DNA of 64,000 nucleotides. Source: Escherichia coli. GTDB taxonomy: Bacteria > Pseudomonadota > Gammaproteobacteria > Enterobacterales > Enterobacteriaceae. Where the stretch lies: NCBI RefSeq assembly GCF_044647545.1, contig NZ_CP172818.1; one strand, given 5' to 3'. A program made the position numbers and the translations under genes. Positions within the stretch are counted from its first letter, which is position 1. Every line of letters starts with the position of its first letter. Below, piece by piece: positions 6,843-60,869 of this stretch. A model generated the notes under the pieces. It searched no databases, was not told the DNA's origin, and saw nothing but the letters and a program-made list of their open reading frames with translations.

Positions 6843-8453
6843 ATGAGCATTCCATTTACCCGCTGGCCGGAAGAGTTTGCCTGTCGCTATCGGGAAAAAG
6901 GCTACTGGCAGGATTTGCCGCTGACCGACATTCTGACGCGACATGCTGCGAGTGACAGCATCGCGGTTATCGACGGCGAGCGGCAGTTGAGTTACCGGGA
7001 GCTGAATCAGGCGGCGGATAACCTCGCGTGTAGTTTGCGCCGTCAGGGCATTAAACCTGGTGAAACCGCGCTGGTACAGCTGGGTAACGTCGCTGAATTG
7101 TATATTACCTTTTTCGCGCTGCTGAAACTGGGCGTTGCGCCGGTGCTGGCGCTGTTCAGCCATCAGCGTAGTGAACTGAACGCCTACGCCAGCCAGATTG
7201 AACCGGCGTTACTGATTGCCGATCGCCAACATGCGCTGTTTAGCGGGGATGATTTCCTCAACACATTTGTTGCAGGGCATTCTTCCATTCGCGTGGTGCA
7301 ACTTCACAACGACAGCGGTGAGCATAACTTGCAGGATGCGATTAACCATCCGGCTGAGGATTTTACTGCCACGCCATCTCCTGCTGATGAAGTGGCCTAT
7401 TTCCAGCTTTCCGGCGGAACCACCGGCACACCGAAACTCATCCCACGCACTCATAATGACTATTACTACAGCGTGCGTCGTAGCGTCGAGATTTGTCAGT
7501 TCACACAACAGACGCGCTACCTGTGCGCGATCCCGGCGGCTCATAACTACGCCATGAGTTCACCGGGATCGTTGGGGGTATTTCTCGCTGGCGGCACTGT
7601 CGTTCTGGCTGCCGACCCCAGCGCCACGCTTTGCTTCCCATTGATTGAAAAACATCAGGTGAACGTCACCGCGCTGGTGCCACCAGCAGTCAGCCTGTGG
7701 TTACAAGCGCTGACCGAAGGTGAAAGCCGGACGCAGCTTGCTTCCCTGAAACTGTTACAGGTCGGCGGCGCCCGTCTTTCTGCCACGCTGGCAGCGCGTA
7801 TTCCCGTAGAGATTGGCTGCCAGTTACAGCAGGTGTTCGGTATGGCGGAAGGGCTGGTGAACTACACCCGACTTGATGATAGCGCGGAGAAAATTATCCA
7901 TACCCAGGGTTACCCAATGTGTCCGGACGATGAAGTGTGGGTTGCCGATGCCGAAGGAAATCCACTGCCGCAAGGGGAAGTTGGACGCCTGATGACCCGC
8001 GGTCCGTACACCTTCCGTGGCTATTACAAAAGCCCGCAGCACAATGCCAGCGCCTTTGATGCCAACGGTTTTTACTGTTCCGGCGATCTGATCTCTATTG
8101 ATCCAGAGGGTTACATCACTGTGCAGGGGCGCGAGAAAGATCAGATCAACCGTGGCGGCGAGAAGATCGCTGCCGAAGAGATCGAAAACCTGCTGCTGCG
8201 CCATCCGGCGGTGATCTACGCCGCACTGGTGAGCATGGAAGATGAGCTGATGGGCGAAAAAAGCTGTGCTTATCTGGTGGTAAAAGAGCCGCTGCGCGCG
8301 GTGCAGGTGCGTCGTTTCCTGCGTGAACAGGGTATTGCCGAATTTAAATTACCGGATCGCGTGGAGTGTGTGGATTCACTTCCGCTGACGGCGGTCGGGA
8401 AAGTCGATAAAAAACAATTACGTCAGTGGCTGGCGTCACGCGCATCAGCCTGA
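6843..8453 (+). CDS. entE: 2,3-dihydroxybenzoate-AMP ligase (adenylation enzyme)
   Basis: 536 aa; adenylate-forming core motif SGGTTGTPK. Confidence 0.95.
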
Positions 8454-15480: not shown

Positions 15481-16110
15481 TTATTTAACCGTCCAGGCGC
15501 GGGAAAATTGACGGTCGGCAAACAACTCTTGCAGGCCGTTAATTTGCTTCAGGCGCAACACTTCGTCGCTGTCCATTCCCAGCTCTTTGCCAATTTTATT
15601 ATCGTCCCATCCCAACTGGCTGAGTTCTCGGACGATTTCTGACATGGCAGTGATTTGGTGACGTCCACGAGCGCGATTATGACGAATAGTTGCGGCGATG
15701 CGTTGATTACGCGTACCTTCCAGACAGGTCACCGGCAAATAACCTTTTAAGCGTAATTTTAACGATGATGAGCCTTTACCAATTTCATGGCGGTGAAAAC
15801 CATCCACGATTTCCAGGGCATTTTTATCCGTATGCGTGACCACAATGGGTTGGGTAAAACCATCTATTTCAATGGATTTTTTCAGCAGTTTTTTTTCGGG
15901 TGGTGCCACGTTGTTTGGGTTGTAATCATTAGGCATAAGTTGGCTGTTTTTAACCCACAGAACGCAATCCACTGGCTCTTCACGAAAGGGGCTAACCTGA
16001 TGGATCGCCATGCGGATTTCATTAATCGCTTTGATGCGATCATCTTCCGGCAAGCTGGCGAGAAATTGGGTTAAATCCTGCGTTAATCGTTGTTGCATAG
16101 TATCCCCCAT
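15481..16110 (-). CDS. ybdM: ParB/sulfiredoxin-like domain protein
   Basis: 209 aa; ParB/Srx signature IVDGFHRHE; 28-bp overlap with upstream ybdN; stop abuts ybdL stop. Confidence 0.88.
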   Translation of the reverse strand: MGDTMQQRLTQDLTQFLASLPEDDRIKAINEIRMAIHQVSPFREEPVDCVLWVKNSQLMPNDYNPNNVAPPEKKLLKKSIEIDGFTQPIVVTHTDKNALEIVDGFHRHEIGKGSSSLKLRLKGYLPVTCLEGTRNQRIAATIRHNRARGRHQITAMSEIVRELSQLGWDDNKIGKELGMDSDEVLRLKQINGLQELFADRQFSRAWTVK

Positions 16111-17303
16111 TCCTGACGTTTTCCTTTTATCCGTTCGTTATAACGCTGATAGTTCTTCGCTTTCGTAGGACTAAATGATAATGCCCGGCACCAGTAATCG
16201 TTATTGAGTAAAACTTTGCATATTCGCCGCCAGGAGGGGATATCTTTCGCGCCAATGTCCCCTTGCTGGGTTTGTGGAACTTCGATGCCTTTTTTCTGAT
16301 ACCAGTGCAAATAAATGGCGATTTTATTGCGGTAATGCTCAGCTGTTTTTTCCGGCATGCTATTGAGCAGCAATAATGCATATTCTTGCCAGTCTAAATG
16401 TTCTGGCTTGAGGATTTTCCGATGACCATAAAAATGATTATCATGTCCGGCGTAAATGCCGCCACTTTTTACCCCGCTGACTCGTGCGCACATAGCAGCC
16501 CAGCGATCCGGTTCGATAACGTGATAGAGCCATAATCCTTGCCGTTGCTCCGGGCCAAAAGGTTCGCAAATTCGCATATGACGCAGAGGAACGCCTGCCT
16601 GATACATTATATTATACAGTGGGTTACAGAGCTGTTGATGGTTAGCATACCAGGTCCAGATATCAGCCACTTTCCAGTCGTAGATGGGGTAAATGTACCA
16701 ACTATGACCGCCTGGTGCGGCGGTGGTCCAGGGCTTATCATCGGCAAAACGTTGTTTATTTAAACTGGCGATGGCGACAAAACGGTTGTAGGACTCATCT
16801 GCACGGATGCCGATCATCATCGCCGCCGGACGTTTTTGTGAAAACCATTCAGCAAACTCACGCACAAATTGTTCGAAGGTCATGCCAGGCTGGTAAAAGG
16901 AGAAAAAGTCAGGATCGGTTATCGCATCTTGCGGGGGCTGACGCACCCATTCGACATCAGGTTCCCAGCACTGCCATTCGGGTTGGTATTGAGAAAGGGA
17001 ATTTTGCGTCGTAAGCGGGAGCGCAACCCAGTAAAACTCTTCGATGACATCGGCGTAAAACTCACGTAATGACTGAACATAGTTAATAGTGCATGAGAAC
17101 TGCGCTTCCCAGTCGATAAACAAAACGCAGATTTTTTTGCCCATTTGTCGGGCAATTTCGGCGGTCAGATGCAGCATTAATCCGGAATCTTTACCACCCG
17201 AAAAAGAAACGCAGACACGGGGTAGGGTATTAAGTGTCCAGGTAATACGTTCTTTTGCAGCTTCCAGAATATTCAGTGGAAGCGGGATTTTATAAATAGA
17301 CAT
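16083..17303 (-). CDS. ybdN: PAPS-reductase-like PP-loop ATP pyrophosphatase family protein
   Basis: 406 aa; PP-loop motif SFSGGKDS near N-terminus. Confidence 0.88.
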   Translation of the reverse strand: MSIYKIPLPLNILEAAKERITWTLNTLPRVCVSFSGGKDSGLMLHLTAEIARQMGKKICVLFIDWEAQFSCTINYVQSLREFYADVIEEFYWVALPLTTQNSLSQYQPEWQCWEPDVEWVRQPPQDAITDPDFFSFYQPGMTFEQFVREFAEWFSQKRPAAMMIGIRADESYNRFVAIASLNKQRFADDKPWTTAAPGGHSWYIYPIYDWKVADIWTWYANHQQLCNPLYNIMYQAGVPLRHMRICEPFGPEQRQGLWLYHVIEPDRWAAMCARVSGVKSGGIYAGHDNHFYGHRKILKPEHLDWQEYALLLLNSMPEKTAEHYRNKIAIYLHWYQKKGIEVPQTQQGDIGAKDIPSWRRICKVLLNNDYWCRALSFSPTKAKNYQRYNERIKGKRQEWGILCNND

Positions 17304-17449
17304 CTAAAAACGCTCTCTGAACGTTACGGGGTGACTCGTGAGATGAATCCGCTAATTATAGGATAAACGAAGCAAGATAGAGCACATTATTTTATATTCA
17401 CATAATGAATTAATTGATGCGTAATATATTATTTGCCAGTGGTAATGAA

Positions 17450-18352
17450 TCAGAAGCTATCATTTAAACGATCTATGAATCGGGAGAAGACAAGGTTGTT
17501 CAACGAAGCCTTGTTATAGGAAATATAAAGTTTAACCGCAGGAAGAGGTTGTTCCAGTTTTATTTCTTTTAACTTCAAAAAGTCACGATGTAAATTGTAC
17601 AGTTCGGTGGGCACAATGCCTAATAAGTCAGTAACAGAAATACTATTAATTATAGTCATCAAAGAAGAACTGCGAAATGAAACTTTACGGTTCATAAAAC
17701 GTTCATCTATGTCCATTTGAATTTCGTCAATCCCTGCTGATTTAGATATCAACAGGGTGAATTCTTCGGCGATAATTTGTTCATAGTTACTGGTATCGGT
17801 AATACGAGGATGTTTGTTGCTACATATAAGAGAATTGCGAATAGTATGTAACGGCATGCAGATGACAGAGCGGCTAATTACTGGTTGTAGTGTAATTGCC
17901 AGGTCAGTTTTGCGTTGAACCAACAGTTCTTCGGCATTTTCAGCTGAAAGCAGTATGTCATGGCATTCTATATCGATTGAAGTATCTTGTCTAAGACAGC
18001 GGATTAGCATGTTGTTATTAGTACAAGAAATAAGCTGAGGACCGTAGATAATAAAATTTTTCTTTAGCTCAGACTTATTAACAATATTGATCGTTTGTTC
18101 AATGCCTCTGAGATTTTTCTCAAGATGATGATGCAGATTTAACCCTGTCGTAGTCGGCGCGATACCTTTCCCTGAACGAATGAATAACGGGTCATTAAAT
18201 TGCGCACGTAAACGTTGTAACGACTGACTAACAGCAGAGGGCGTTATATATAATGATTCTGCCGCTTTACTAATGCTGAGATGTTGATAAATACATTCAA
18301 ATATGACCAGTAAATTGAGGTCAAATTTTTTTAGATCATAAAGATTCGCCAT
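17450..18352 (-). CDS. ybdO: LysR-family transcriptional regulator
   Basis: 300 aa from ATG at 18352 (alternative upstream ATG at 18388); N-terminal HTH; markedly AT-rich coding sequence. Confidence 0.85.
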   Translation of the reverse strand: MANLYDLKKFDLNLLVIFECIYQHLSISKAAESLYITPSAVSQSLQRLRAQFNDPLFIRSGKGIAPTTTGLNLHHHLEKNLRGIEQTINIVNKSELKKNFIIYGPQLISCTNNNMLIRCLRQDTSIDIECHDILLSAENAEELLVQRKTDLAITLQPVISRSVICMPLHTIRNSLICSNKHPRITDTSNYEQIIAEEFTLLISKSAGIDEIQMDIDERFMNRKVSFRSSSLMTIINSISVTDLLGIVPTELYNLHRDFLKLKEIKLEQPLPAVKLYISYNKASLNNLVFSRFIDRLNDSF

Positions 18353-18556
18353 AACATACTCCGTTGTATTGTCTCTTCCATAAATCATTCACTTGATCAA
18401 TATTGTTGTTGTATTTATATGTGTTATGTTTTTCTGCTTAACTTTGGATTAAGATTTTCTAAAATAGCATAGCTGTCAGGTGGGTTACGAGCAATTCATG
18501 CTTTTTTAGGATGGTTGAAAAGCAGGAATATATTTCAACCATCCATAAATTATCTT

Positions 18557-19303
18557 TTATTTATTCCCCATAATGATATTAAGCGTTTTCTGATCGGGCA
18601 ACCCCACGGCCTGTTGCAGTGTATTTTCCTTACTCATGTAATAGATAGCTGGCGTGACATTTGCCCCCAGATCGTCCATCAGTTTCTCGTTATCGCTTAA
18701 CACTTTCATTTGCTCTGTACTTACGTTTGCAGGCACGTTTAGTTTAAGCTTGCCACCAGAGGCTTCATATTCTTGCCAGGTTTTTGCGGGATCTTTGGAG
18801 GCAAGAATTGCCGCTGCTGTCGCCGGGCTTTCTGGCTTGATAACGCCAACCAACAATGTTCTTAATTGCACTTTGCCAGAATCTACCCACGGGCGAGCCT
18901 GCTGCCAGAACTGTTTACAATATGGGCAGAACGGATCGGCGAAGACGTAGACAATGACCGGCGCGTCTTTTTTACCGTCGAGGAGCCAGTGGGATTGTTC
19001 CATCCGTTGCCACATTTCGCGTCCGGCGGGTGCGTAAATTTCTTTTTCGATAAGTGTGTTACTCAGGTTTTCACCTTTCTCGTTGTACATGTAACCGGAG
19101 ATAGCGTGCTTACCATCTGGAGTCAGGTAGATGGTGACGCCCATATCCTGATACTTGCCGAGATAACCTTTCATTCCTCCGGGAGCATCGAACGTTTTGA
19201 TGATTGTAATGCCCTGTTTTTCAATCGCTTTTACTGGGGCAGGAAGTTCCTCTGCGAAGGCGATTGCAGGAAGCAGAGCCAGTAAAAGTATCTTTTTTAA
19301 CAT
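18557..19303 (-). CDS. dsbG: Periplasmic thiol:disulfide interchange protein
   Basis: 248 aa from ATG at 19303; signal peptide [17 protein letters not shown]; thioredoxin CPYC motif. Confidence 0.92.
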
Positions 19304-22049: not shown

Positions 22050-22478
22050 TTAACGCACAACCAGCACCGGCAGATTGGCGTGGCGGATCACGCTCGAGGC
22101 GTTAGAACCCAACAGATGAGTTGAAATTGATGGGTTACGCGAACCAATCACTACTACATCTGCATCAAGTTCTTTCGCTAACTCGTTAACTTCATCCCGC
22201 ACACTACCAAAACGGACATGTTGCTTAATGCGGGAAGGATCGATGGTGAAGTGGCTGACCATCGTTTGCAGACGTTCTTCTGCTTCATGTTGCAGATGCT
22301 CTTCAAAACGACGTACATCAGCGGCAAAACGGTGCAGACTCAGGCTGGCGGACCCCGGTAGTACGTGAAGTAGATGAATAACTCCGTCATCCTGGGCGAG
22401 GAATTCAGCGTGGCGAACCGCTTTGTCGCTCAATTCCATTTCGAAAACATCCACTGGCATGATGATTGTTTTGTACAT
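22050..22478 (-). CDS. uspG: Universal stress protein G
   Basis: 142 aa from ATG at 22478; Usp fold, C-terminal GSRNPS ATP-binding-type motif. Confidence 0.9.
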
Positions 22479-22699
22479 AAGCATTCTCTCCTTGTTTTTG
22501 CATGTTATAAAGAACTAAAGCGTTGTTCAAGGTATAGCACTGCAGCACACAATAATTGCTGCTATGAATATATAAATATGCAGTGATATCGAGAGCTTCG
22601 CTCATATGAGGTTATTCCGCAGATGAATAACCAGTTCAGATTAGAATGCTGCAGCATAAGAGAAAAATGATAAATCTGGATAAATTGATATTTGAGCGG

Positions 22700-22725
22700 A
22701 AAGAGGATGCGAGTGCATCCTCTGG
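22700..22725 (-). terminator. Putative terminator hairpin after rnk
   Basis: Perfect 9-bp stem agaggatgc / gcatcctct with 4-nt loop, 34 bp past the rnk stop; weak U-tract. Confidence 0.35.
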
Positions 22726-22756
22726 GCAAAGCGAGTTGTCGCTTGTGCAGATGGGA

Positions 22757-31055: not shown

Positions 31056-31434
31056 AATAAATAGTATCCTGAAGGTGCATGTTGTTATCGATTTGCAACG
31101 AATGTTGTTCGATGTTGCAAACTGATAACCTTTTATTTTCACTTGGGAGAAAGGGGGGCGATCGAGGTATATCTTTTTCTCCTTTCGCTATACATCCTAA
31201 GGAGTATTGCTGCGTGAAATTTTGATTTATTTCACATAGAGTTAGTGGTTTTTTATTTATTTAATGGTTTTAAGTTTTTTAATTAATGTAATTACGAAAT
31301 GACCCGCAGGTTTAAGTGATTTAATTGATTTAATGAATAAAATTTGCCACGATTATATTTAATATCTATGTATTTTGATTCAACATTTTAATTACATCTG
31401 TCAAAGAGGCTCGGGACAACCCGCAAGGAAAACA
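31056..31434. promoter_or_regulatory. Divergent citC / dpiB control region
   Basis: 379-bp very AT-rich intergenic region with tandem gatttaat direct repeats (31318-31325 and 31327-31334) and further ttaatg/ttaatt motifs; expected location of DpiA and CRP sites. Confidence 0.5.
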
Positions 31435-33782: not shown

Positions 33783-35168
33783 TTACTTGCCTGTGACCGC
33801 GGCTGCCGTTCCTGGCACCATCAGCTCTGTAGCAACGATAACAATCACCAGCCCAACAAGCACCGGTACCGAGGTGCGTTTTACGACTTCAAATGGTGAG
33901 ATTTTCGCCATCCCGGCAACCGCAACGACTACGCCAGAAACGGGTGACAGGGTACGACCGAGGTTTGACGCCTGCAGCATTGGGATAGTCAAATACGCCG
34001 GGTTAATGCCGGAAGAGTGCGCCAGTTTCGGGATCATCTCAACAAACGCATAAAACGGCGCATTGCCTGAACCGGTCGTGACTGCCGCCAGCATTGTCAG
34101 GATCACTAATACCAGCATCAGGATGATACTCGCCGAACCAAACGAGGTGGCGATAGAAATCAGACTTTGAATAAAGCCGATGGTGCTAAGCCCCTGAGCG
34201 AATACCCCAGCGGCAACCAGCAGCATCACCACGTTAGCAAACGCATCGGCCATCCCGCGATAAGCCACTTCCAGACCAGAGAAAACTTTCTGGGTATTAA
34301 AGCTGCGGATGAACTCCAGAATGGAGGCAATCAGCATACAAATCACCAGAATAGTGATGATGTGTAATTGCGGACCCCATTTGCCGTCAAAAATCAGCAC
34401 TCCGATGATCGGCGTGAACGGCAAAATGGCATAAAACGCAGGAGCAGTAGTGGTGATTTCACTGACATCTAACATTTCATGAGAGATATGCTCTTTTTTA
34501 TCCAGATAACGTTGCCAGAAGAAGTGGGCGATCGCCATGCCGATAATTGCAGCAATTGAGATAGGCAGCGTCGTTTTGAAGGCGAAGTCAATCAGCGACA
34601 TTTCGGAAGCCTGCGCCGCCAGCACCACATCCCCTGAAGTCGGTGCGAGAATAATCGCCGCCGGGGAGGCACAAATAGCAGCAGCTGCACCACGGCTGAT
34701 ACCAACGTTTACCATCACCGGAAACAGGGTTGCCATCAGCAAAACACCCAGACCGGTTGCGGAAGAGACGGCCAGAGACATCAGACAGGCGACAAAATAG
34801 GCGGCAATCATCAGCAGGTAAGGGGAGTTAATATACTGCAATGGTTTTGACGCCAGCTTGACCACCATATCATTCGCGCCGATATGGGTCATGTAAGCGG
34901 CAAAGCCACACAGCATCATAATCATCATGCCGAGGTCGCCGCCGCGGCTCATTAGCAATATTTTAACGTATTCAACGATATCCGTGGCGCTGTAGCCTGT
35001 TGAAGCCTGGCTGGACGGTAACACTTTGTGCCCCATAATGGCACTGATAATCAGCAATAACAGGCCACCGACAAATAACACGCCAGTGGCGGAATACCCT
35101 TTAATGATGTAGCGAGCTACACCCACAATAACCATAACCCCAATAAGGAGTTCAATGAATGTCAGCAT
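33783..35168 (-). CDS. dcuC: Anaerobic C4-dicarboxylate transporter
   Basis: 461 aa polytopic membrane protein; intact, no insertion. Confidence 0.93.
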   Translation of the reverse strand: MLTFIELLIGVMVIVGVARYIIKGYSATGVLFVGGLLLLIISAIMGHKVLPSSQASTGYSATDIVEYVKILLMSRGGDLGMMIMMLCGFAAYMTHIGANDMVVKLASKPLQYINSPYLLMIAAYFVACLMSLAVSSATGLGVLLMATLFPVMVNVGISRGAAAAICASPAAIILAPTSGDVVLAAQASEMSLIDFAFKTTLPISIAAIIGMAIAHFFWQRYLDKKEHISHEMLDVSEITTTAPAFYAILPFTPIIGVLIFDGKWGPQLHIITILVICMLIASILEFIRSFNTQKVFSGLEVAYRGMADAFANVVMLLVAAGVFAQGLSTIGFIQSLISIATSFGSASIILMLVLVILTMLAAVTTGSGNAPFYAFVEMIPKLAHSSGINPAYLTIPMLQASNLGRTLSPVSGVVVAVAGMAKISPFEVVKRTSVPVLVGLVIVIVATELMVPGTAAAVTGK

Positions 35169-35756
35169 AATTTTTCCTGTCTCCAGGCCCCAAAGTAAAT
35201 AATAAAAAATTCCTAAAAATTAAGGAAAAAATATGCCCAATAAATTGGCGGTGAATGCTGATTAAAATCAAGAAAAACTGCCATTAAGACATTGAAGTTG
35301 CTGTTTTTATACGTAGATAACAAAACGCATATTTAGCGGTTGGCAAATATCACATAATAATGTGTGTAAATTGATGGTGGATTGATGCAAATTTGTTAAT
35401 TGCAATGGTGTTAGCTGCGGCCATGCGCTCAAAAAATAATCTAATATGAGCATGGGTTGACGATATATATTATATACTTCGTTAAGATGATTGTTGTATC
35501 TCGTTAAAAAATAAAATAATTTTTCCTTGATTGCATTTTGTCATCAAAAAAGACTTGGTTTTTCTTTTTTGACTATTCCCATCGCAGAAAACGACGCATC
35601 ATCTTTAATCGATGCGCGGAAATATTTAACTTAAACAAGCGGAAATAAATAGAGCAGCTATTCAGATTATTTTTTATGTTGGGGCTATTAAGGTTATGTT
35701 AATTGTAGCTTTGCTATGCTAGTAGTAGATTTTTGATAAATGTTTAATGGTCACAA

Positions 35757-36317
35757 ATGAACGTGAGTAAATATGTCGCTATATTTTTCTTTGTTTTTAT
35801 TCAGTTAATCAGTGTTGGTAAAGTTTTTGCTAACGCTGATGAGTGGATGACAACGTTTAGAGAAAATATTGCACAAACCTGGCAACAGCCAGAACATTAT
35901 GATTTATATATTCCTGCCATCACCTGGCATGCGCGTTTTGCCTATGACAAAGAAAAAACCGATCGCTATAACGAGCGACCGTGGGGCGGCGGTTTTGGTC
36001 AGTCGCGTTGGGATGAAAAAGGAAACTGGCATGGCCTGTATGCCATGGCATTTAAGGACTCGTGGAACAAATGGGAACCGATTGCCGGATACGGATGGGA
36101 AAGTACCTGGCGACCGCTGGCGGATGAAAATTTTCATTTAGGCCTGGGATTTACCGCTGGCGTAACGGCGCGCGATAACTGGAATTACATCCCTCTTCCG
36201 GTTCTACTGCCATTGGCCTCTGTGGGGTATGGCCCCGCGACGTTTCAGATGACCTACATTCCGGGTACCTACAACAATGGCAATGTGTACTTTGCCTGGA
36301 TGCGCTTTCAGTTTTGA
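35757..36317 (+). CDS. pagP: Lipid A palmitoyltransferase (outer-membrane beta-barrel)
   Basis: 186 aa; signal peptide [25 protein letters not shown]. Confidence 0.93.
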
Positions 36318-36491
36318 GACAAATGAAGTTTTAGTAAATTCTTTAAAATCAACCACTAAAATAATTAACATCAAAAATAACGCGACTTTTATCACTTTTT
36401 AGTAAAGTTGCACTGGACAAAGCGTACCACAATTGGTGTACTGGTAACCGACACAGCATTTGTGTCTATTTTTCATGTAAAGGTAATTTTG

Positions 36492-39628: not shown

Positions 39629-40582
39629 TCAAAATGCATTACGGATAACATCTATTACCCCGTGCAGGATGGGATCACGCAGGCTGAATTTGTTGTAGTG
39701 GATAGAGAAATCTATTTGCTCCTCATTTAAGGACGGAAAAGGCAGTTTTTCCAGCGGCCAGCAACGGCTAAACAGGTTATAAAAACGGCTGGGAATAATC
39801 GCTAACATGTCACTGTTGGCAACCAGTGCAGCGATTGTCAAAATGTTGTAGCTGGTGAAACTGATTTGCCGGTCCGGAAACATCTCTTGAACTCTCTGCC
39901 GCAGACCGCTGAAATTTTGCCCTTCCGGTAACAGGAGTATATGCGCAGCGTTGTCGATAGTCTCTCTGTCATCTTCTAAAGAGAGTAGTGGATTTCCCTC
40001 ACGGCAAATTAACACCATATTGTCGGTGAACAGAACATGATGTTGCACCGTACGATTGGTGCAAAACATGTTATCGATGATGAGATCGGTTTGAAACTGA
40101 CTGAGTTGGTTTTCCGCGTCGCTGATGGGGGGGTTGCGCAGTAAAAGCTGCGGATAGTGAGATTTAATCGCCCGATAGATGACAGGAAGGACCAGGGCTC
40201 CGACCGAGGGGGTGGTCGCAATAGTTATCGTTCGTTGCTTATCATAGCTTCCTTCGATATCCAGCGCGCCAAGAATGGACTCAAGGCCCTGACTGATATA
40301 CTCATGTAGATGCATCGCAAATGCGGTAGGAGTGACACCCTGGCCTTTGCGAATAAACAATGGGTCAGGGAATATAACGCGCAGTTTCTGAATAGACTGA
40401 CTGATTGCCGAGGGTGTCAGATTAAGCACTTTCGCTGCATTAACGATCCCTTTATGTACATATACAGCTTCAAAAATAGTCAGAAGGTTAAGATCAATAT
40501 TTCGTAAGGTTGTAAATATTTGTGGTTTACCTTCTGACGACTTTCTGCTTAAACAGGTTTCAATTTGATTATTACTATCCAC
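39629..40582 (-). CDS. ybeF: LysR-family transcriptional regulator
   Basis: 317 aa; N-terminal HTH closely similar to YbdO; AT-rich coding sequence. Confidence 0.87.
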   Translation of the reverse strand: MDSNNQIETCLSRKSSEGKPQIFTTLRNIDLNLLTIFEAVYVHKGIVNAAKVLNLTPSAISQSIQKLRVIFPDPLFIRKGQGVTPTAFAMHLHEYISQGLESILGALDIEGSYDKQRTITIATTPSVGALVLPVIYRAIKSHYPQLLLRNPPISDAENQLSQFQTDLIIDNMFCTNRTVQHHVLFTDNMVLICREGNPLLSLEDDRETIDNAAHILLLPEGQNFSGLRQRVQEMFPDRQISFTSYNILTIAALVANSDMLAIIPSRFYNLFSRCWPLEKLPFPSLNEEQIDFSIHYNKFSLRDPILHGVIDVIRNAF

Positions 40583-40841
40583 GCACTTACTCCAATTTTA
40601 TTCATGGAAAAATAATATTAAAAAAAATTACAATAATCTTATGTCTAATTGGAACGGAACGCTTTTGCTCACCATAATCAACTATTTCAATAAGTTAATC
40701 AATGGGGTGAGTTACGGAGCAAGGCGTAGCATCGCATTTCTGCTAGTGATAAAGAAAATATACAAACGCGAAGGAGATGTAAAGCATTAGCAGGTATTAT
40801 GAGTAATGACCCAGTGTAAATTGGGCCATTGATGTATGCAA

Positions 40842-54775: not shown

Positions 54776-55753
54776 TTACAGTAAATCTTCAATCTCACGG
54801 ATTTTTTGACTGACATCCCTGGTACCGGATGACTGAGCTTTACGATACAGATCGAGAGCCTGTCGGAGATCGACAGGTCTTCCTTCTCCGTAATGATACA
54901 TAATGGCAAGGTTATACCAGGCAGTGGCATTATCGCATTCAGCGGCTTTCGTAAACCATTCAAAGGCGGCCTGATAATCTTTCTCAACGCCTTGTCCATG
55001 TTTATACATATAACCGATGTTGACGTAAGCGCCGACGCTTTCCTGAGCGGCAGCCTTCAGATACCAGTACATCGCTTGCTTATAGTCCTGGTCCACCCCT
55101 TCGCCAGCGTTATAATCCCATGCAATTTGAAACTGGGCATGCCGATTACCCTGCTGTGCGCTTTTCAAATACCAGAATGCGGCGAGTGTCTTATTTTGAG
55201 CAACGCCTTCTCCGTCTTTATAGAGATCGGCCAGGTTGTCTTGCGCGTAACTATGGCCTTGTAATGCAGCTTGTTTGTACCAGAAAAATGCCAGCGCATA
55301 GTCTTGTGCGACTCCGTTGCCATTTCTGTACATCCACCCAAGATTATTTTGCGCATAAGACATTCCGCTCTCCGCGGCTATCTGATACCAGGCAACCGCT
55401 TCTTTATAGTTGGGGTCTTCTCCACGATCCTGTATCCAGCCAAGGGCGTTGGAAGCGAAAGTATGGCCTTGTAGGGCAGCTTTTTTCAGCCAAAAGATGG
55501 CTTGCCCATTATCTTTATGACGGCTTTTATCCTCGGTATACTTTTGCCCTAAGGAATATTGTGCTTCACAATGACCTTGCTCAGCGGCAAGCTTCAGCCA
55601 GTAAAAGGCCTTTTCGTCGTCCGGAGAGTCAATTGCGCTATCGCGATTATAATAAAACCCAATAATATATTGAGCCTCGCAATCGCCTTTTTCAGCACGT
55701 TCGATAATCTCATCTATTGATAAATTATCGCAGCAACTTGACGTAAAAATCAT
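54776..55753 (-). CDS. ybeQ: Sel1-repeat (TPR-like) protein, no signal peptide
   Basis: 325 aa from ATG at 55753; tandem roughly 36-aa repeats with recurring A-x-QG-x-x-A-Q-x-x-L-G / YxxG motifs. Confidence 0.88.
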   Translation of the reverse strand: MIFTSSCCDNLSIDEIIERAEKGDCEAQYIIGFYYNRDSAIDSPDDEKAFYWLKLAAEQGHCEAQYSLGQKYTEDKSRHKDNGQAIFWLKKAALQGHTFASNALGWIQDRGEDPNYKEAVAWYQIAAESGMSYAQNNLGWMYRNGNGVAQDYALAFFWYKQAALQGHSYAQDNLADLYKDGEGVAQNKTLAAFWYLKSAQQGNRHAQFQIAWDYNAGEGVDQDYKQAMYWYLKAAAQESVGAYVNIGYMYKHGQGVEKDYQAAFEWFTKAAECDNATAWYNLAIMYHYGEGRPVDLRQALDLYRKAQSSGTRDVSQKIREIEDLL

Positions 55754-55916
55754 TATCATTTCCTTATGGTTGCATATAAAGCATATTATATTTTTATGTG
55801 TTCCATTTTTGCGTAAGCCTTATTTTATGCGTATTATGTTGCGTCAGAAAAGTATAAATAAATGAGCCTCGCAACGTGGTTAATATTCATTGAATGAATA
55901 TTTAAGGATAAATTAT

Positions 55917-56624
55917 ATGGACATGGAGTCGCAAAAAATATTGTTTGCACTTTCCACTCCGATGGAAATACGCAATGAATGCTGTTTACCTTCGCATTCA
56001 TCCCCCAAAATGTATTTAGGTACACGCTTTTTTGACCTTTCTTCCTCCTGGGGAATTGATGACCGTGATGACCTGCTGCGCACAATTCACCGAATGATCG
56101 ATAACGGTCATGCCGCTCGGTTGGCAGGGCTTTATCACCGCTGGTTTCGTTATTCTCCGTGTGAATGGCGTGACTATCTTGCTGAACTAAATGAGCAAGG
56201 TCAGGCTTATGCGCAATTTGTCGCCAGCACCGCCGAATGCTGTGGCGAAGGGGGAATCAAAGCCTGGGATTATGTCCGGATGGGTTTTTTAAGCCGAATG
56301 GGCGTACTTAATAACTGGTTGAGTGAAGAAGAAAGCCTGTGGATCCAGTCGCGCATTCATCTACGGGCTCTACGTTATTATAGTAACTGGCAGCAATACT
56401 TTGCCGGTTATACCTTTGGTCGGCAATATTGGCAGTCTCCCGAGGATGATGATCTGCCTTTATTACGTGAATTCTTAGCGCGTAAAGAATACGACGATTC
56501 CGGCAATGATATGTTTTATCAATTATTTGCCAGTGACGATGCATATTACGCGACCTTACCCTGGCAACCACTGGCTGACTACCCCACATGCCCGGAAACG
56601 CTTAAGGATATGAGCGACCTATGA
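55917..56624 (+). CDS. ybeR: DUF1266-family protein, paralog of YbeU
   Basis: 235 aa from ATG at 55917; stop overlaps djlB start (ATGA). Confidence 0.88.
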
Positions 56625-58048
56625 AAAATTGCTGGAAGATTCTCGAAATAGAGGAAACGACTGACGTCGATATTATCCGCCGCGCTTATCTGGCGCTGTT
56701 ACCGTCCTTTCATCCAGAAACCGATCCGCAGGGTTTTAAACAACTTCGTCAGGCGTATGAGGACGCGCTACGGATTGCGCAGTCGCCTGCTAAATCTGTT
56801 TGGCAACCAGAAGAACATGAAGTTGCAGAACATGAAATTCTGCTCGCCTTTCGTGCGTTACTCGCCTCTGATAGCGAACGTTTTCTGCCCTCTGCCTGGC
56901 AGCGATTCATTCAGCAATTAAATTATTGCTCGATGGAAGATATTGATGAATTACGCTGGTCGCTGTGCACAATAGCCATGAACACTGCCCATTTATCCTT
57001 CGAGTGCGTGGTGTTATTAGCAGAAAGATTGCGGTGGTTGCAGGAGGAAAACGTCGGGGAAATAGACGAAGAAGAACTGGAATCCTTTTTATATGCCATT
57101 GCGAAGGGGAATGTTTTTAACTTCCAGACCATTCTGCATCTGCCCGTTGCCGTACAAAATGACACCATTGATTTTTACCAAATGTTCGCTCGGATTTGGT
57201 CATCGCATCCAGAATGGCTGACATTGTATTTAGCGCAACATCGCGCAGTGATTATCCCCGATGATGCAAATTTGCACAGAAATTTACTCCGCTGGTATAG
57301 CACAAGCCGTCTGGATATCCCCGAACTTCTGGATTACGCCCGGTCGTGGCGGGAAGCTGAACCTGATAATGAAGATGCGCGTTATTATGAATACGCGCAA
57401 CGCGTCTATTGTGGAGAAGGCGAAAGCCTGCTGGCAGAACTTTGTGACTACTGGCGCGAGTATCCCTCCACCCAGGCGGATGCTTTAATGTTGCAATGGT
57501 GCCGTCAGCATCGGGTCGATTATTACCCGTTAGTGGTGATGATGATTGAAGCGCGTGATCTGGTTAACGATCAGGGAAAACCGCTACTTTATGTCCCTGG
57601 TGACAGCGCTCGTACGCGTTTTCATTTATACGAAATACTCAGTGATGAAAAACTCTCTGCGCTGGGGCGTTCTCTGGTCGAGATGGTTTTGCACAAAGGA
57701 CGTAAGCCGCGGATCTCACTCACGCGTGATACAGAACATACCTTATGGTCATTATATCTAGTTGCCAAACAATTAGTGCAGGCCAGCCAACCGACAGAAG
57801 AATCATTAATGCCGATTGTGAGCCGCCTTGATGCAGAAGATCGTTGTCCTCTGGAAGCATTAATTATTCGACGGTTATTAATTCAGGCGGCGAATTTTAC
57901 CGAGAAGCAAACCGTCGAACCGGAGCCGCAACCGCAGTCGATGCCCGTTGACGATGGTGGGCCGGGCTGTCTGGGCGTCATCAAAATTATTTTCTACATT
58001 TTTATCTTTGCCGGTTTAATAGGGAAAATACTCCATCTGTTCGGGTGA
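56621..58048 (+). CDS. djlB: J-domain-like protein with C-terminal membrane anchor, paralog of DjlC
   Basis: 475 aa; N-terminal J-like helix pair with HPE where HPD is expected (HPETDP); C-terminal hydrophobic tail [20 protein letters not shown]. Confidence 0.9.
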
Positions 58049-58057
58049 CAGTCGACG

Positions 58058-58612
58058 TTAATGTGCGGGAAGCCCGGCAAGTAATCTTTCCGCGTTTTTG
58101 TAATGTTGTTTGGCGGCCAGTTTTAACCATTTTTGAGATTCATAATGGTTAACATTAATACCTGAGCCATTTCTGTAGATCAAACCCAAAGTATATTGAG
58201 CATGAGCATACCCTTGTTCAGCTGCTTCCTTATACCAGAGAATTGCTTTACGGGTATCGGGTTTGACCCCCAGACCTTTGAGGTAGATCCACCCCAGTTT
58301 ACTTTGCGCGCGTGGATTTTCCTGTTCCGCTGATTGCTCATACCAGTATCTCGCCTGTGTATAATCCAGTGGTTTACCGTCGCTACCATGAAGATAAAAT
58401 TCTCCAAGGCGATATTGCGACGTTGAGTGACCATGAATCGCGGAAAGCTCCGTGGCTGCCGTGGTGAATGGAAGACTGCCCGGTGAGCTTAAATAATCAA
58501 AGGCATAATTCGCCATGGCTTTATCACGCAACGTCGTTTTCTTGGGTTGGCTAATACAGGTTATTGCTGCAACTATAAATATTGCGAATGTATACATTAA
58601 TTTTTTATTCAT
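58058..58612 (-). CDS. ybeT: Sel1-repeat protein with N-terminal signal/anchor sequence
   Basis: 184 aa; hydrophobic N-terminus [21 protein letters not shown] then Sel1-type repeats. Confidence 0.88.
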
Positions 58613-58713
58613 GTGTGAATGCTTCGATTTTCTTTTTATTTTGAAAGCGTCAAGTTTATACTCATCAATAATAAAAAAGTAGTCAGTTAATGCACTTAAG
58701 GGATTATTAACAA

Positions 58714-59421
58714 ATGAATAAGGAAGAACAATATCTTCTTTTTGCGCTTTCTACGCCCATGGAAATACTTAATCAGGGTTGCAAGCCCGCGCATGACTCG
58801 CCAAAAATGTATACCGGGATAAAAGAATTCGATCTCTCATCATCCTGGGGAATAAATAATCGTGATGATTTAATTCAGACTATTTATCAGATGACCGATG
58901 ATGGTCATGCCAATGATTTAGCTGGCTTATATCTGACATGGCATCGCTCTTCCCCTGAAGAGTGGAAAGCATTAAATGCTGGTGGCTCGGAGAGAGGGTT
59001 GATTTATACCCAATTCGTTGCCCAAACCGCTATGTGTTGTGGGGAAGGGGGAATCAAAGCCTGGGATTATGTGCGGATGGGTTTTTTATCACGGGTTGGT
59101 GTGCTCAACAAGTGGCTGACGGAAGACGAGAGTTTATGGCTGCAATCGCGCGTCTATATACGAGCACACCATTACTATCACAGCTGGATGCACTATTTTT
59201 CCGCCTATTCGTTAGGGCGTCTCTACTGGCAATCTTCTCAGTGCGAAGACAACGCTTCGCTACGCGAGGCGCTAACCCTGTACAAATACGATAGCGCCGG
59301 GAGTCGGATGTTCGAAGAGCTGGCAGCGGGAAGCGACCGTTTCTATGCCACGCTTCCCTGGCAGCCATTAACTGTCCAGCCTGAATGCCCGGTAACGCTT
59401 AAGGATGTGAGCGACCTATGA
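58714..59421 (+). CDS. ybeU: DUF1266-family protein, paralog of YbeR
   Basis: 235 aa; stop overlaps djlC start (ATGA). Confidence 0.9.
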
Positions 59422-60869
59422 AAACATGTTGGCAAATCCTCGAAATTGAAAGCACGACGCAAATAGACATTATCCGCCAGGCTTATCTTGTTCGCTTACC
59501 GTTGTGTCATCCCGAAACCGATCCGCAGGGGTTTAAAGCATTACGCCAGGCCTATGAAGAGGCGCTGCGACTGGCGGTAAATCCTGTCGAGGAGGCAGAT
59601 GATGAAGAAAAAGATGCCGCCGCTGAACATGAAATACTACGTGCATTCAGGGCATTACTGGATTCTGAAAGTGATCGTTTTCAGCCCTCCGCCTGGCAGA
59701 AATTTATTCAGCAATTAAATACCTGGAACATGGAGGATGTCGATCAATTACGCTGGCCGCTGTGTGCAGTCGCTATAGAAGCGCGATATCTTTCATTAAA
59801 TTGTGCTTCTTTGCTGGCAGAGCGTTTGAACTGGCATTCGTTTAATGACAGCGAAGGAATGGATGAGGAAGAAAGGGAGGCTTTTCTTGAGGCCATTCAG
59901 GCTGGTGATTGTTTCGATTTCCTTAGCCTTCTGGAATATCCCGTCGCGTTGCAGAACCAGACTGTTGAGTATTACTTCGCGCTGGAACGCTGCTGCCGTT
60001 ACCATCCTGACTATGTCACTGCGTTTATGGCAATGGAAGGTCCGTGGTTCATTCCTGATGATGTCAAGTTACATCGCAAACTGTTGCGCTGGTACAGCTC
60101 GGTGAAAACAGGTATGGCGGAACTTATTCCTGTTGCCCAACAGTGGCAAGCAGAAAATCCAGAAAGCGAAGATGCCCGTTATTACCAGTGTGCGCAACGG
60201 TTGTACTGTGGCGAGGGGGAAAGCCTGCTTGCCGATCTCTGCGCATACCGGGAGAGTTACCCATCTACACAAGCTGATAATTTGTTGTTGCAGTGGAGCA
60301 AGCGTCATTGCCCGGATTATTTCGCGTTATTAGTGATGGTTATCGAAGCGCGAAGCATGATAGATGCGCAAGGTCAACCGTTGAAATATGTTCCTGGTGA
60401 GAGCGCCCGGACGCGGCTGTTATGGGCGGAAATTTTACATAGCGGAAAATTATCGCCGTTAGGTCAATCGTTTATTGAGTCGTTATTCTTCAAGCGCAAA
60501 GCATGGGCATGGTGGAAATCGAGAGTCGGTAGCGAGACAGAACAAGATTCACCGTTACTGGATTTGTATCGGGTAGCGGAACAGGTTGTGCTGGAAGCGT
60601 TCCCGAAACAAGAGATGCTGGCCCGTCTTAATACAAGGCTGGAAGGTGGAGATGCTCATCCATTAGAGGCCATTATCACGCGGATGCTGTTGACGAAAGT
60701 GAAACTCGAGCCGGAGGATGAAGATGTCGATGAGCCAACACCTGAAAACCACGAAGAAAAAAATGATGAGGATGAAAAACCACAGAGCATTACCAGCATT
60801 ATCAAAATCAGCTTAACGGTGCTGGTGATAGGTTATGCTCTCGGAAAAATCGCGATGTTGTTTAGCTGA
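59418..60869 (+). CDS. djlC: J-domain-like co-chaperone of HscC with C-terminal membrane anchor
   Basis: 483 aa; N-terminal J-like region with HPETDP; acidic linker; C-terminal TM tail [17 protein letters not shown]. Confidence 0.92.

Follow-up and report, generated by a model that had tools for sequence, protein, structure and literature searches.

The two LysR-type regulator genes of the analysed window, a stretch of 64,000 nt of the Escherichia coli chromosome running from fepC to rihA, are the known genes citR (ybdO) and ybeF. They are very probably old paralogues, with citR encoding an H-NS-silenced repressor whose AT bias is maintained and with no recent import involved. For identity, paralogy, composition, synteny and alleles this model draws on our own analyses, for H-NS repression and the CitR targets on published work, and for the operators and the cause of the AT bias on inference. 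The genes needed for the argument are the following:

17450–18352, minus strand: citR (ybdO), 300-aa LysR-type regulator; RefSeq citR match at 100% identity.
39629–40582, minus strand: ybeF, 317-aa LysR-type regulator with a GTG start; RefSeq ybeF match at 100% identity.
16083–17303, minus strand: ybdN, PAPS-reductase + DUF3440.
15481–16110, minus strand: ybdM, ParB/IbrB-like.
15481–17303, minus strand: ybdNM operon, adjoining citR; CitR-repressed according to PMC9068703.
24317–31055, minus strand: citCDEFXG-citT citrate lyase/antiporter operon (from the annotation), between citR and ybeF; published CitR target (PMC9068703).

Of 5,426 complete E. coli genomes, 5,422 matched a 4.5-kb query around citR. 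Annotated CDSs mapped onto the window at 99.9–100% identity, with yldA of strain ECONIH1 as the sole exception. RefSeq names the product of 17450–18352 ‘DNA-binding transcriptional repressor CitR’; ybdO is the former name of the gene. The program-made list of open reading frames extends ybdO to an ATG at 18388, and the stretch before MANLYDLKK is not conserved as protein. Since the orthologues of all genera begin with MANLYDLKK, we place the true start at 18352. Open reading frames, RefSeq annotation and orthologue starts thus agree with the coordinates and gene names given in the preliminary description, which are correct. A defence-system reading of ybdNM/ybdO was rejected: PADLOC returned marginal PAPS-reductase-fold matches for YbdN (DndC 21.9 bits, BrxP 18.5 bits), a marginal methyltransferase match for YbdM and no match for YbdO, and scores this marginal lend such a reading no support.

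Both proteins are full-length LysR-type regulators of about 300 aa with an N-terminal HTH and an effector domain. Pfam HTH_1 covers residues 12–70 of YbdO (E 8.7e-19) and 31–89 of YbeF (E 1.5e-14), and LysR_substrate covers residues 137–298 of the 300 aa of YbdO and 116–316 of the 317 aa of YbeF, both above the gathering score. BLASTP aligned the two over 302 aa at 30% identity (E 2e-42); a hand count puts identity at about 58% for the first 60 residues aligned (HTH) and at about 24% thereafter. The motifs DLNLL.IFE, TPSA.SQS.Q.LR and DPLFIR occur in both. Against the NCBIfam families, YbdO scored 454.5 bits on the CitR equivalog (NF047710; cutoff 400; model positions 1–294 of 295), followed by YbeF at 169.5 bits and LeuO at 101, while YbeF scored 612 bits on its own family (NF008554; cutoff 277), followed by CitR at 181 bits, BsrA and then LeuO at 112. 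With 169.5 bits on the YbeF model, below the cutoff of 277, YbdO is therefore a paralogue and not a member of the YbeF family. The reciprocal second-best families make CitR and YbeF the nearest curated relatives of each other, within a LeuO-like branch, as judged by NCBIfam families rather than by each of the 47 E. coli LTTRs. The paralogy proposed from the shared N-terminal motifs is thus borne out by the BLASTP alignment, the motifs themselves and the reciprocal ranks. The two proteins have previously been termed paralogues at 30% identity (PMC9068703). Our search of the literature on CitR and YbeF found a small-molecule effector known for neither.

Base composition separates the two genes. 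Across the 62 genes of the window (mean GC 0.518, sd 0.046; window GC 0.51), ybdO has both the lowest GC (0.367, z −3.3) and the lowest GC3 (0.342, z −2.9); its GC is low evenly along the whole gene, and only 1.4% of windows of the same length are as AT-rich. ybeF, with a GC of 0.451 (rank 4 of 62, z −1.46) and a GC3 of 0.478 (rank 10), lies among neighbours of 0.474 (lipB), 0.462 (ybeD) and 0.536 (lipA), and 12% of windows of its length reach its AT content. Its AT-richness is confined to the first ~200 nt (GC 0.33–0.39) and to the upstream spacer:

40583–40841, minus strand: lipB-ybeF spacer, presumed ybeF promoter region; GC 0.344.

As a whole gene, ybeF is not clearly AT-rich. Codon adaptation was low for both genes and extreme for neither (ybdO 0.218, rank 3 of 62; ybeF 0.240, rank 8; window mean 0.332); these values, computed with Sharp-Li weights, are approximate, with ahpC at 0.79 and cspE at 0.57 as a sanity check. 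The preliminary description had both genes visibly more AT-rich than their neighbours and proposed windowed GC and codon adaptation as the check. Its statement applies strongly to ybdO, a GC outlier, but only weakly to ybeF, which is close to lipB.

A scan of one genome per species yielded ybdO relatives at no fewer than 40 loci in at least 11 enterobacterial genera: Citrobacter, Salmonella, Enterobacter, Klebsiella, Raoultella, Kluyvera, Leclercia, Lelliottia, Pseudocitrobacter, Pluralibacter and Superficieibacter. Almost all of these loci share the context ahpF-ahpC-(dsbG)-ybdO-ybdN-ybdM-ybdL, and in all 40 the orthologue lies 4–15 GC points under its own flanks. GC3 of ybdO was lower than that of the flanks in 25 of 25 taxa (mean −0.13) and correlated with it (r 0.85). 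Because GC3 follows the host with a constant AT offset, we read the offset as a maintained bias and not as the mark of an un-ameliorated import. The YbdO protein tree roughly matches the genera. YbdO is also the fastest-evolving protein locally, at 47–61% identity to the E. coli protein, compared with 95–98% for AhpC and 72–85% for YbdN, and its first 25 residues hardly vary from one genus to the next.

Salmonella, Enterobacter, Kosakonia and a Cedecea-like genome likewise carry ybeF between lipB and lipA. The GC of the whole gene in these four genera is near the locus mean, and only the promoter/spacer and the 5′ coding end are AT-rich; intact copies share 64–72% identity across genera. The same position has been reported for four enterobacteria, with ybeF absent there from Yersinia and Shewanella (PMC4398509); given these two genera without the gene at lipB-lipA, an ancient insertion of ybeF in the ancestor of the family is plausible. 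A scan of the window for tRNA genes and a search for flanking repeats of the island type were both negative, and citR and ybeF are each present in about 98–100% of the 5,426 E. coli genomes. The suggestion that the regulators were horizontally acquired, taken as a recent event, is refuted by synteny in at least 11 genera, the genus-like tree, the tracking of GC3 and the lack of island marks, and it is tenable only for an ancient event. ybdO has long been resident and is no recent import.

H-NS silencing of ybdO is documented. The gene was chosen as an H-NS-bound, horizontally transferred gene with H-NS binding conserved in strains K-12, SE11 and SE15, is derepressed in an hns mutant, and carries H-NS-dependent elements at −250 to −176 (URE) and +27 to +164 (DRE); its transcription starts 106/107 nt upstream of the ATG, and its expression under laboratory conditions is very low (PMC4720273, Higashi et al. 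2016). In a K1 strain, H-NS represses ybdO directly, with relief at acid pH, and YbdO directly activates the kpsM capsule promoter (PMC9141747, Fan et al. 2022). YbdO was renamed CitR on the basis of a study (PMC9068703, Rodionova et al. 2022) in which a ChIP-exo peak lay at citR-ybdNM and both ybdNM and citCDEF were derepressed in a citR deletion mutant; the remaining CitR ChIP-exo peaks did not coincide with differentially expressed genes. In a ybeF deletion mutant, expression of lrhA fell and that of flagellar genes rose, but no binding site was identified (PMC9068703). A literature search for ybeF together with H-NS found no direct binding data; the sole hint is the adjacent lipB, which the S2 table of PMC4720273 counts among H-NS-bound genes. 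citA, too, is listed as H-NS-bound. The proposal of H-NS-silenced regulators therefore stands for ybdO, with the lipB call as the one hint for ybeF, and the conjecture that they may control neighbouring functions matches the published repression of ybdNM by CitR.

Taken together, citR and ybeF are old paralogues of the LeuO-like branch, very probably fixed in place before the enterobacterial genera split, with ybdO between dsbG/ahpC and ybdNM and ybeF between lipB and lipA. H-NS on the AT-rich promoter and 5′ coding region keeps citR almost silent. Expression rises in early stationary phase, and acid pH lifts H-NS repression in the K1 strain. CitR then binds its own locus and represses the adjoining ybdNM; it also represses, directly or indirectly, the citrate lyase operon located between the paralogues, and in K1 strains it activates the capsule promoter. 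The AT-richness of ybdO is most simply explained as maintained and needed for H-NS silencing; the offset could also stem from mutation that is locally biased in silent DNA, or from a protein rich in I, N, K and S.

The regulatory region of citR and the candidate CitR operators comprise the following elements:

18353–18556, minus strand: ybdO promoter and 5′ UTR; GC 0.309.
18489–18494 and 18466–18471, minus strand: ybdO −35 (TTGCTC) and −10 (TATGCT), separated by a 17-nt spacer; read by eye.
18504–18549: dsbG terminator hairpin, from a hairpin search.
18437–18453, minus strand: palindrome CTTAA-N7-TTAAG within the ybdO transcript (about +6 to +22); putative operator for autoregulation.
18387–18401, minus strand: ATTGATCAAGTGAAT, T-N11-A-type dyad ATTGA-N5-TGAAT, beginning 49 nt before the ybdO ATG; candidate.
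17396–17410, minus strand: ATTCATTATGTGAAT, perfect dyad ATTCA-N5-TGAAT; candidate CitR operator of the ybdNM promoter.
31324–31338, plus strand: ATTGATTTAATGAAT, ATTSA-N5-TGAAT in the divergent citC-dpiB promoter spacer; candidate CitR site for citCDEFXGT.
55885–55899: ATTSA-N5-TGAAT in the ybeQ-ybeR spacer, from the pattern search.

The published ybdO TSS falls at 18458/18459, and Escherichia, Citrobacter and Salmonella share a conserved −10/TSS block. A consensus promoter/terminator scan of 17250–18650 returned no more sites than in shuffled controls; it missed the published ybdO promoter because only 8 of its 12 positions match, and was given no weight. The palindrome in the ybdO leader is the single match to CTTAA-N7-TTAAG in the window (0.05 expected by chance), and its TTAAG half and spacing are conserved in alignments of Escherichia, Citrobacter and Salmonella. 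Five of six Escherichia lineages have the ATTGATCAAGTGAAT dyad in the same place (about −52 in E. albertii), and E10V10 has ATAGA there. In an alignment of six Escherichia ybdO-ybdN spacers, ATTCATTATGTGAAT sits ~45 nt upstream of a conserved TATAAT (17355–17360); the K-12 copy is one base off (CGAAT for TGAAT). The ATTGATTTAATGAAT site is identical in K-12. Across the 64 kb, ATTSA-N5-TGAAT gave six strand-matches at four sites against 0.32 expected, a partly circular count, as the pattern was built from two of the four matched sites, and one in which chance matches in AT-rich DNA are likelier than the shuffle control implies. A relaxed motif scan across genera gave scattered matches, some of which were discarded as coding artefacts inside the conserved C-terminal coding sequence (IDRLN). 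Since ATTSA-N5-TGAAT and CTTAA-N7-TTAAG differ, at most one of them may be the CitR site. We infer that CitR may act via T-N11-A-type sites in the leader of ybdO, the promoter of ybdN and the spacer between citC and dpiB.

Comparison with K-12 revealed an exceptionally divergent segment around citR, with edges set by sliding identity and maximum-likelihood change points:

17181–18487, no strand assigned: hyperdivergent block relative to K-12; 1.3 kb, 22.2% mismatch inside and 3.0% outside.

The block takes in 123 nt at the start of ybdN together with its promoter, the whole of ybdO and the ybdO 5′ UTR/promoter, and ends just before the −35 hexamer. With the ybdO of the window as query, megablast matched only 1,791 of the 5,426 genomes, and a sensitive search matched 5,345 in two modes, 1,771 at 95% identity or more and about 3,570 near 80%. 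Reciprocal searches found the K-12-type allele in 3,559 genomes and a third type in about 15, plus nine at 90–95% to the third type, which shares 85% identity with K-12 and 77.5% with the window; there were almost no intermediates between classes. Between window and K-12, ybdO has a dS of ~2.07, a dN of 0.066 and a dN/dS of 0.03, and 54% of four-fold sites differ. The first 83 YbdO residues are identical in these two classes. For the same pair of strains, dS was 0.008–0.27 in the ybdO flanks, 0–0.17 in the genes around ybeF and 0.043 in ybeF itself. Within classes, the dS of ybdO was 0.097 for the window against GPEC606 (flanks 0.012–0.229) and 0.064 for K-12 against 2010C_3902 (flanks 0–0.058). 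Between the window and the outlying Escherichia lineage L041 it was 0.62, the same as in the flanks (0.42–0.76).

Trees of the two regions disagree. In the flank tree (3.9 kb), the window, K-12 and the third-type strain L047 form one clade with 100% bootstrap, while the ybdO tree groups the window with L041, K-12 with the third type of L047, and E. albertii with Escherichia sp. E10V10, each with 100% bootstrap. The Escherichia relatives compared include E. albertii, sp. E10V10 and the third E. coli allele; E. fergusonii is absent from the set. A supported conflict of topology is beyond the reach of a uniform rate increase. We conclude that the citR classes are old haplotypes, kept across splits or moved by recombination, and not the product of local hypermutation. 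The DNA-binding domain is identical between the allele classes; what sets them apart is their cis-regulatory elements and the effector domain. A more far-reaching possibility, which we put forward only tentatively and regard as somewhat doubtful, is that the citR cassette at 17181–18487 exists as at least three old Escherichia haplotypes that predate or cross species-level splits, are kept discrete by balancing selection or repeated introgression, and provide different E. coli lineages with alternative regulation of ybdNM, citrate lyase and capsule.

ybeF, the sister gene of citR, is under weak constraint and often a pseudogene. About 1,056 of 5,423 genomes carry a truncated, frameshifted copy, and the dN/dS of the gene is 0.16. 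These partial matches were considered as a second divergent allele and rejected as such, being deletions with frameshifts that are annotated as pseudogenes.

Three other explanations were weighed against these data. Locally accelerated substitution in H-NS-bound, AT-rich DNA, the view taken in PMC4720273, would make the citR alleles divergent without being old. The rough coincidence of the block at 17181–18487 with the AT-rich H-NS-bound segment speaks for it, as do the published faster evolution of H-NS-bound regions and the 0.134 substitutions per site in the ybdO-dsbG spacer (PMC4720273). Acceleration of this kind should, however, also operate within classes and towards L041, and there the dS of ybdO is ordinary (0.097 and 0.064 within classes, flanks 0.004–0.23) or equal to that of the flanks; nor does it fit the discreteness of the classes or the fully supported conflict between the ybdO and flank topologies. 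As a control, the AT-rich citC-dpiB spacer, whose flank citA is H-NS-bound, is ~98% identical between the window strain and K-12. We therefore hold this explanation to be improbable and retain the old haplotypes.

Recent acquisition of citR and ybeF as xenogeneic islets that are not yet ameliorated would account for the lowest GC among 62 genes, the low codon adaptation and many rare codons of ybdO, and agrees with its classification among H-NS-bound horizontally transferred genes (PMC4720273). It is already refuted for time scales shorter than the divergence of Enterobacteriaceae genera: ybdO is syntenic in at least 11 genera with a tree that roughly follows the genera and a GC3 that tracks the host, ybeF keeps its place in four further genera at a GC close to average, both genes are nearly universal in E. 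coli, and tRNA genes, integrases and flanking repeats are lacking. As an overall account we consider it hardly credible. A decay of both genes into functionless relics, with composition set by relaxed selection, is very unlikely. The frequent truncation and the dN/dS of ybeF point in that direction, as do IS1 insertions in citR in some genomes, its loss from about 80 and its very low laboratory expression (PMC4720273), but ybdO is under strong purifying selection even at saturated dS, with its N-terminal residues conserved between classes and genera, deletion phenotypes have been published for K-12, K1 and APEC strains, and intact ybeF has kept its identity across genera.

In summary, the observation of paralogous, AT-rich regulators is partly confirmed, and its interpretation is partly supported and largely published; paralogy, H-NS silencing of ybdO and control of ybdNM are all on record and not new, and the finding is an ordinary one. 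The constant AT offset of ybdO at one position across enterobacterial genera illustrates that AT-richness alone does not equal recent horizontal transfer. citR also offers a clean case of discrete, very old regulator alleles within one species, which bears on how H-NS-bound genes ‘diversify’ and on the transfer of CitR results from K-12 to B2-type pathogens. If true, the old-haplotype reading reverses the published view of H-NS-accelerated in-situ divergence at ybdO (PMC4720273). The candidate dyad common to the ybdN, citR and citC promoters would provide a testable route to the direct CitR regulon. The remaining interest thus lies in the old discrete citR haplotypes, the function of ybdNM and the candidate operator shared with the cit promoter.

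Compared with known systems, the window protein corresponds to CitR of K-12 (b0603) in gene, locus and neighbours (ybdNM, dsbG, ahpCF) and passes the CitR equivalog cutoff. The two alleles share 79.8% nucleotide and 88.7% amino-acid identity, with all amino-acid differences beyond residue 83 and thus confined to the linker and effector domain, and the ybdN and ybdO promoters of the window differ from those of K-12. The published CitR target data stem from the K-12 allele, whereas the window carries the other major allele class. The K1 study strain RS218, which we take to be a B2 strain, should carry the window-type citR allele. YbeF (b0629) is 98.4% identical in amino acids to its K-12 counterpart and has the same position between lipB and lipA, with nothing notable different. 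Among the curated families, LeuO ranks third for YbdO and, behind BsrA, fourth for YbeF, so that in both cases it is one of the two that follow the reciprocal CitR/YbeF match; with a LeuO cutoff of 262 bits against scores of 101 and 112, neither protein is LeuO. LeuO is an H-NS-silenced LysR-type regulator that counteracts H-NS, and leuO is H-NS-repressed and poorly expressed in the laboratory. For ybdO, too, low laboratory expression and H-NS repression are published; the anti-H-NS activity is that of LeuO, with none on record for CitR or YbeF. Finally, YbdN and YbdM have the same PAPS-reductase and ParB-like domain make-up as IbrA and IbrB, the regulators of the Eib immunoglobulin-binding proteins; the likeness is one of domains and of the RefSeq name of YbdM (‘IbrB-like domain-containing protein’).

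Between the window and K-12, 22% of positions are mismatched within the block 17181-18487, compared with 3% outside it, and the edges of the block are sharp. Across 5,426 E. coli genomes, citR (ybdO; 17450-18352, minus strand), the LysR-type regulator gene within this block, falls into three discrete allele classes: K-12 type, window type and a third type. Synonymous divergence between these classes is high (dS ~2, dN/dS 0.03), that within them is normal, and the citR gene tree conflicts with the tree of its flanks. Just beyond the edge of the hyperdivergent block lies a repeat that is kept throughout Escherichia:

18504-18549, 17-nt inverted repeat (GGATGGTTGAAA...TTTCAACCATCC), immediately 3' of dsbG

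In E. albertii and the Escherichia sp. lineage E10V10, the repeat shows compensatory changes (GGATAACTG...CAGTTATCC). It is likely the dsbG terminator.

In some E. coli, citR is split by IS1 insertions (hits H24, H51 and H101), and ~80 of the 5,426 genomes contain no citR match whatsoever. In the strain with the third citR allele (locus L047), ybdN, the first gene of the ybdNM operon adjoining citR, is present as two ORFs of 295 and 127 aa (7049-8270), which suggests a frameshifted gene. This strain also carries a 412-aa zinc alcohol-dehydrogenase gene in the rnk-uspG interval (L047 410-1648), where it lies between yldA and uspG; the gene is missing from the uspG-rnk spacer of the window (22479-22756) and from strain ECONIH1, whose yldA region differs as well, by ~80 nt. 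For uspG itself (22050-22478), dS between Escherichia lineages is unusually high at 0.36-1.17 (0.01-0.46 for the neighboring ahpCF); by this sequence comparison, uspG is a second local divergence hotspot.

The paralogous regulator gene is ybeF (39629-40582, minus strand). Among 5,423 complete E. coli genomes, ~1,056 (including those of loci L045 and L046) have a frameshifted ybeF from which the 3' ~400 nt are missing; the gene is therefore dispensable across a large share of the species. The shortened, frameshifted form carries a pseudogene annotation.

The highest AT content of the window is found not in ybdO but within 35018-36491, a stretch that extends from the dcuC 5' end across the dcuC-pagP spacer (35169-35756, GC 0.313); the 900-nt segment of minimum GC starts at 35018. 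The pagP-cspE spacer is similarly AT-rich (GC 0.310). The ybeQ to djlC cluster (54776-60869) combines a low GC content (0.43-0.48) with low codon adaptation, and its spacers are very AT-rich (GC 0.276-0.277). It comprises a duplicated module, adjoined by hscC, of ybeQ/ybeT (Sel1/TPR), ybeR/ybeU (DUF1266) and djlB/djlC (J-domain).

The dyad ATTSA-N5-TGAAT, the candidate CitR operator at the ybdN and ybdO promoters, has two extra copies:

31324-31338, dyad copy in the citC-dpiB spacer
55885-55899, dyad copy in the ybeQ-ybeR spacer

The ybeQ-ybeR copy is identical to the dyad at the ybdN promoter of E. albertii.
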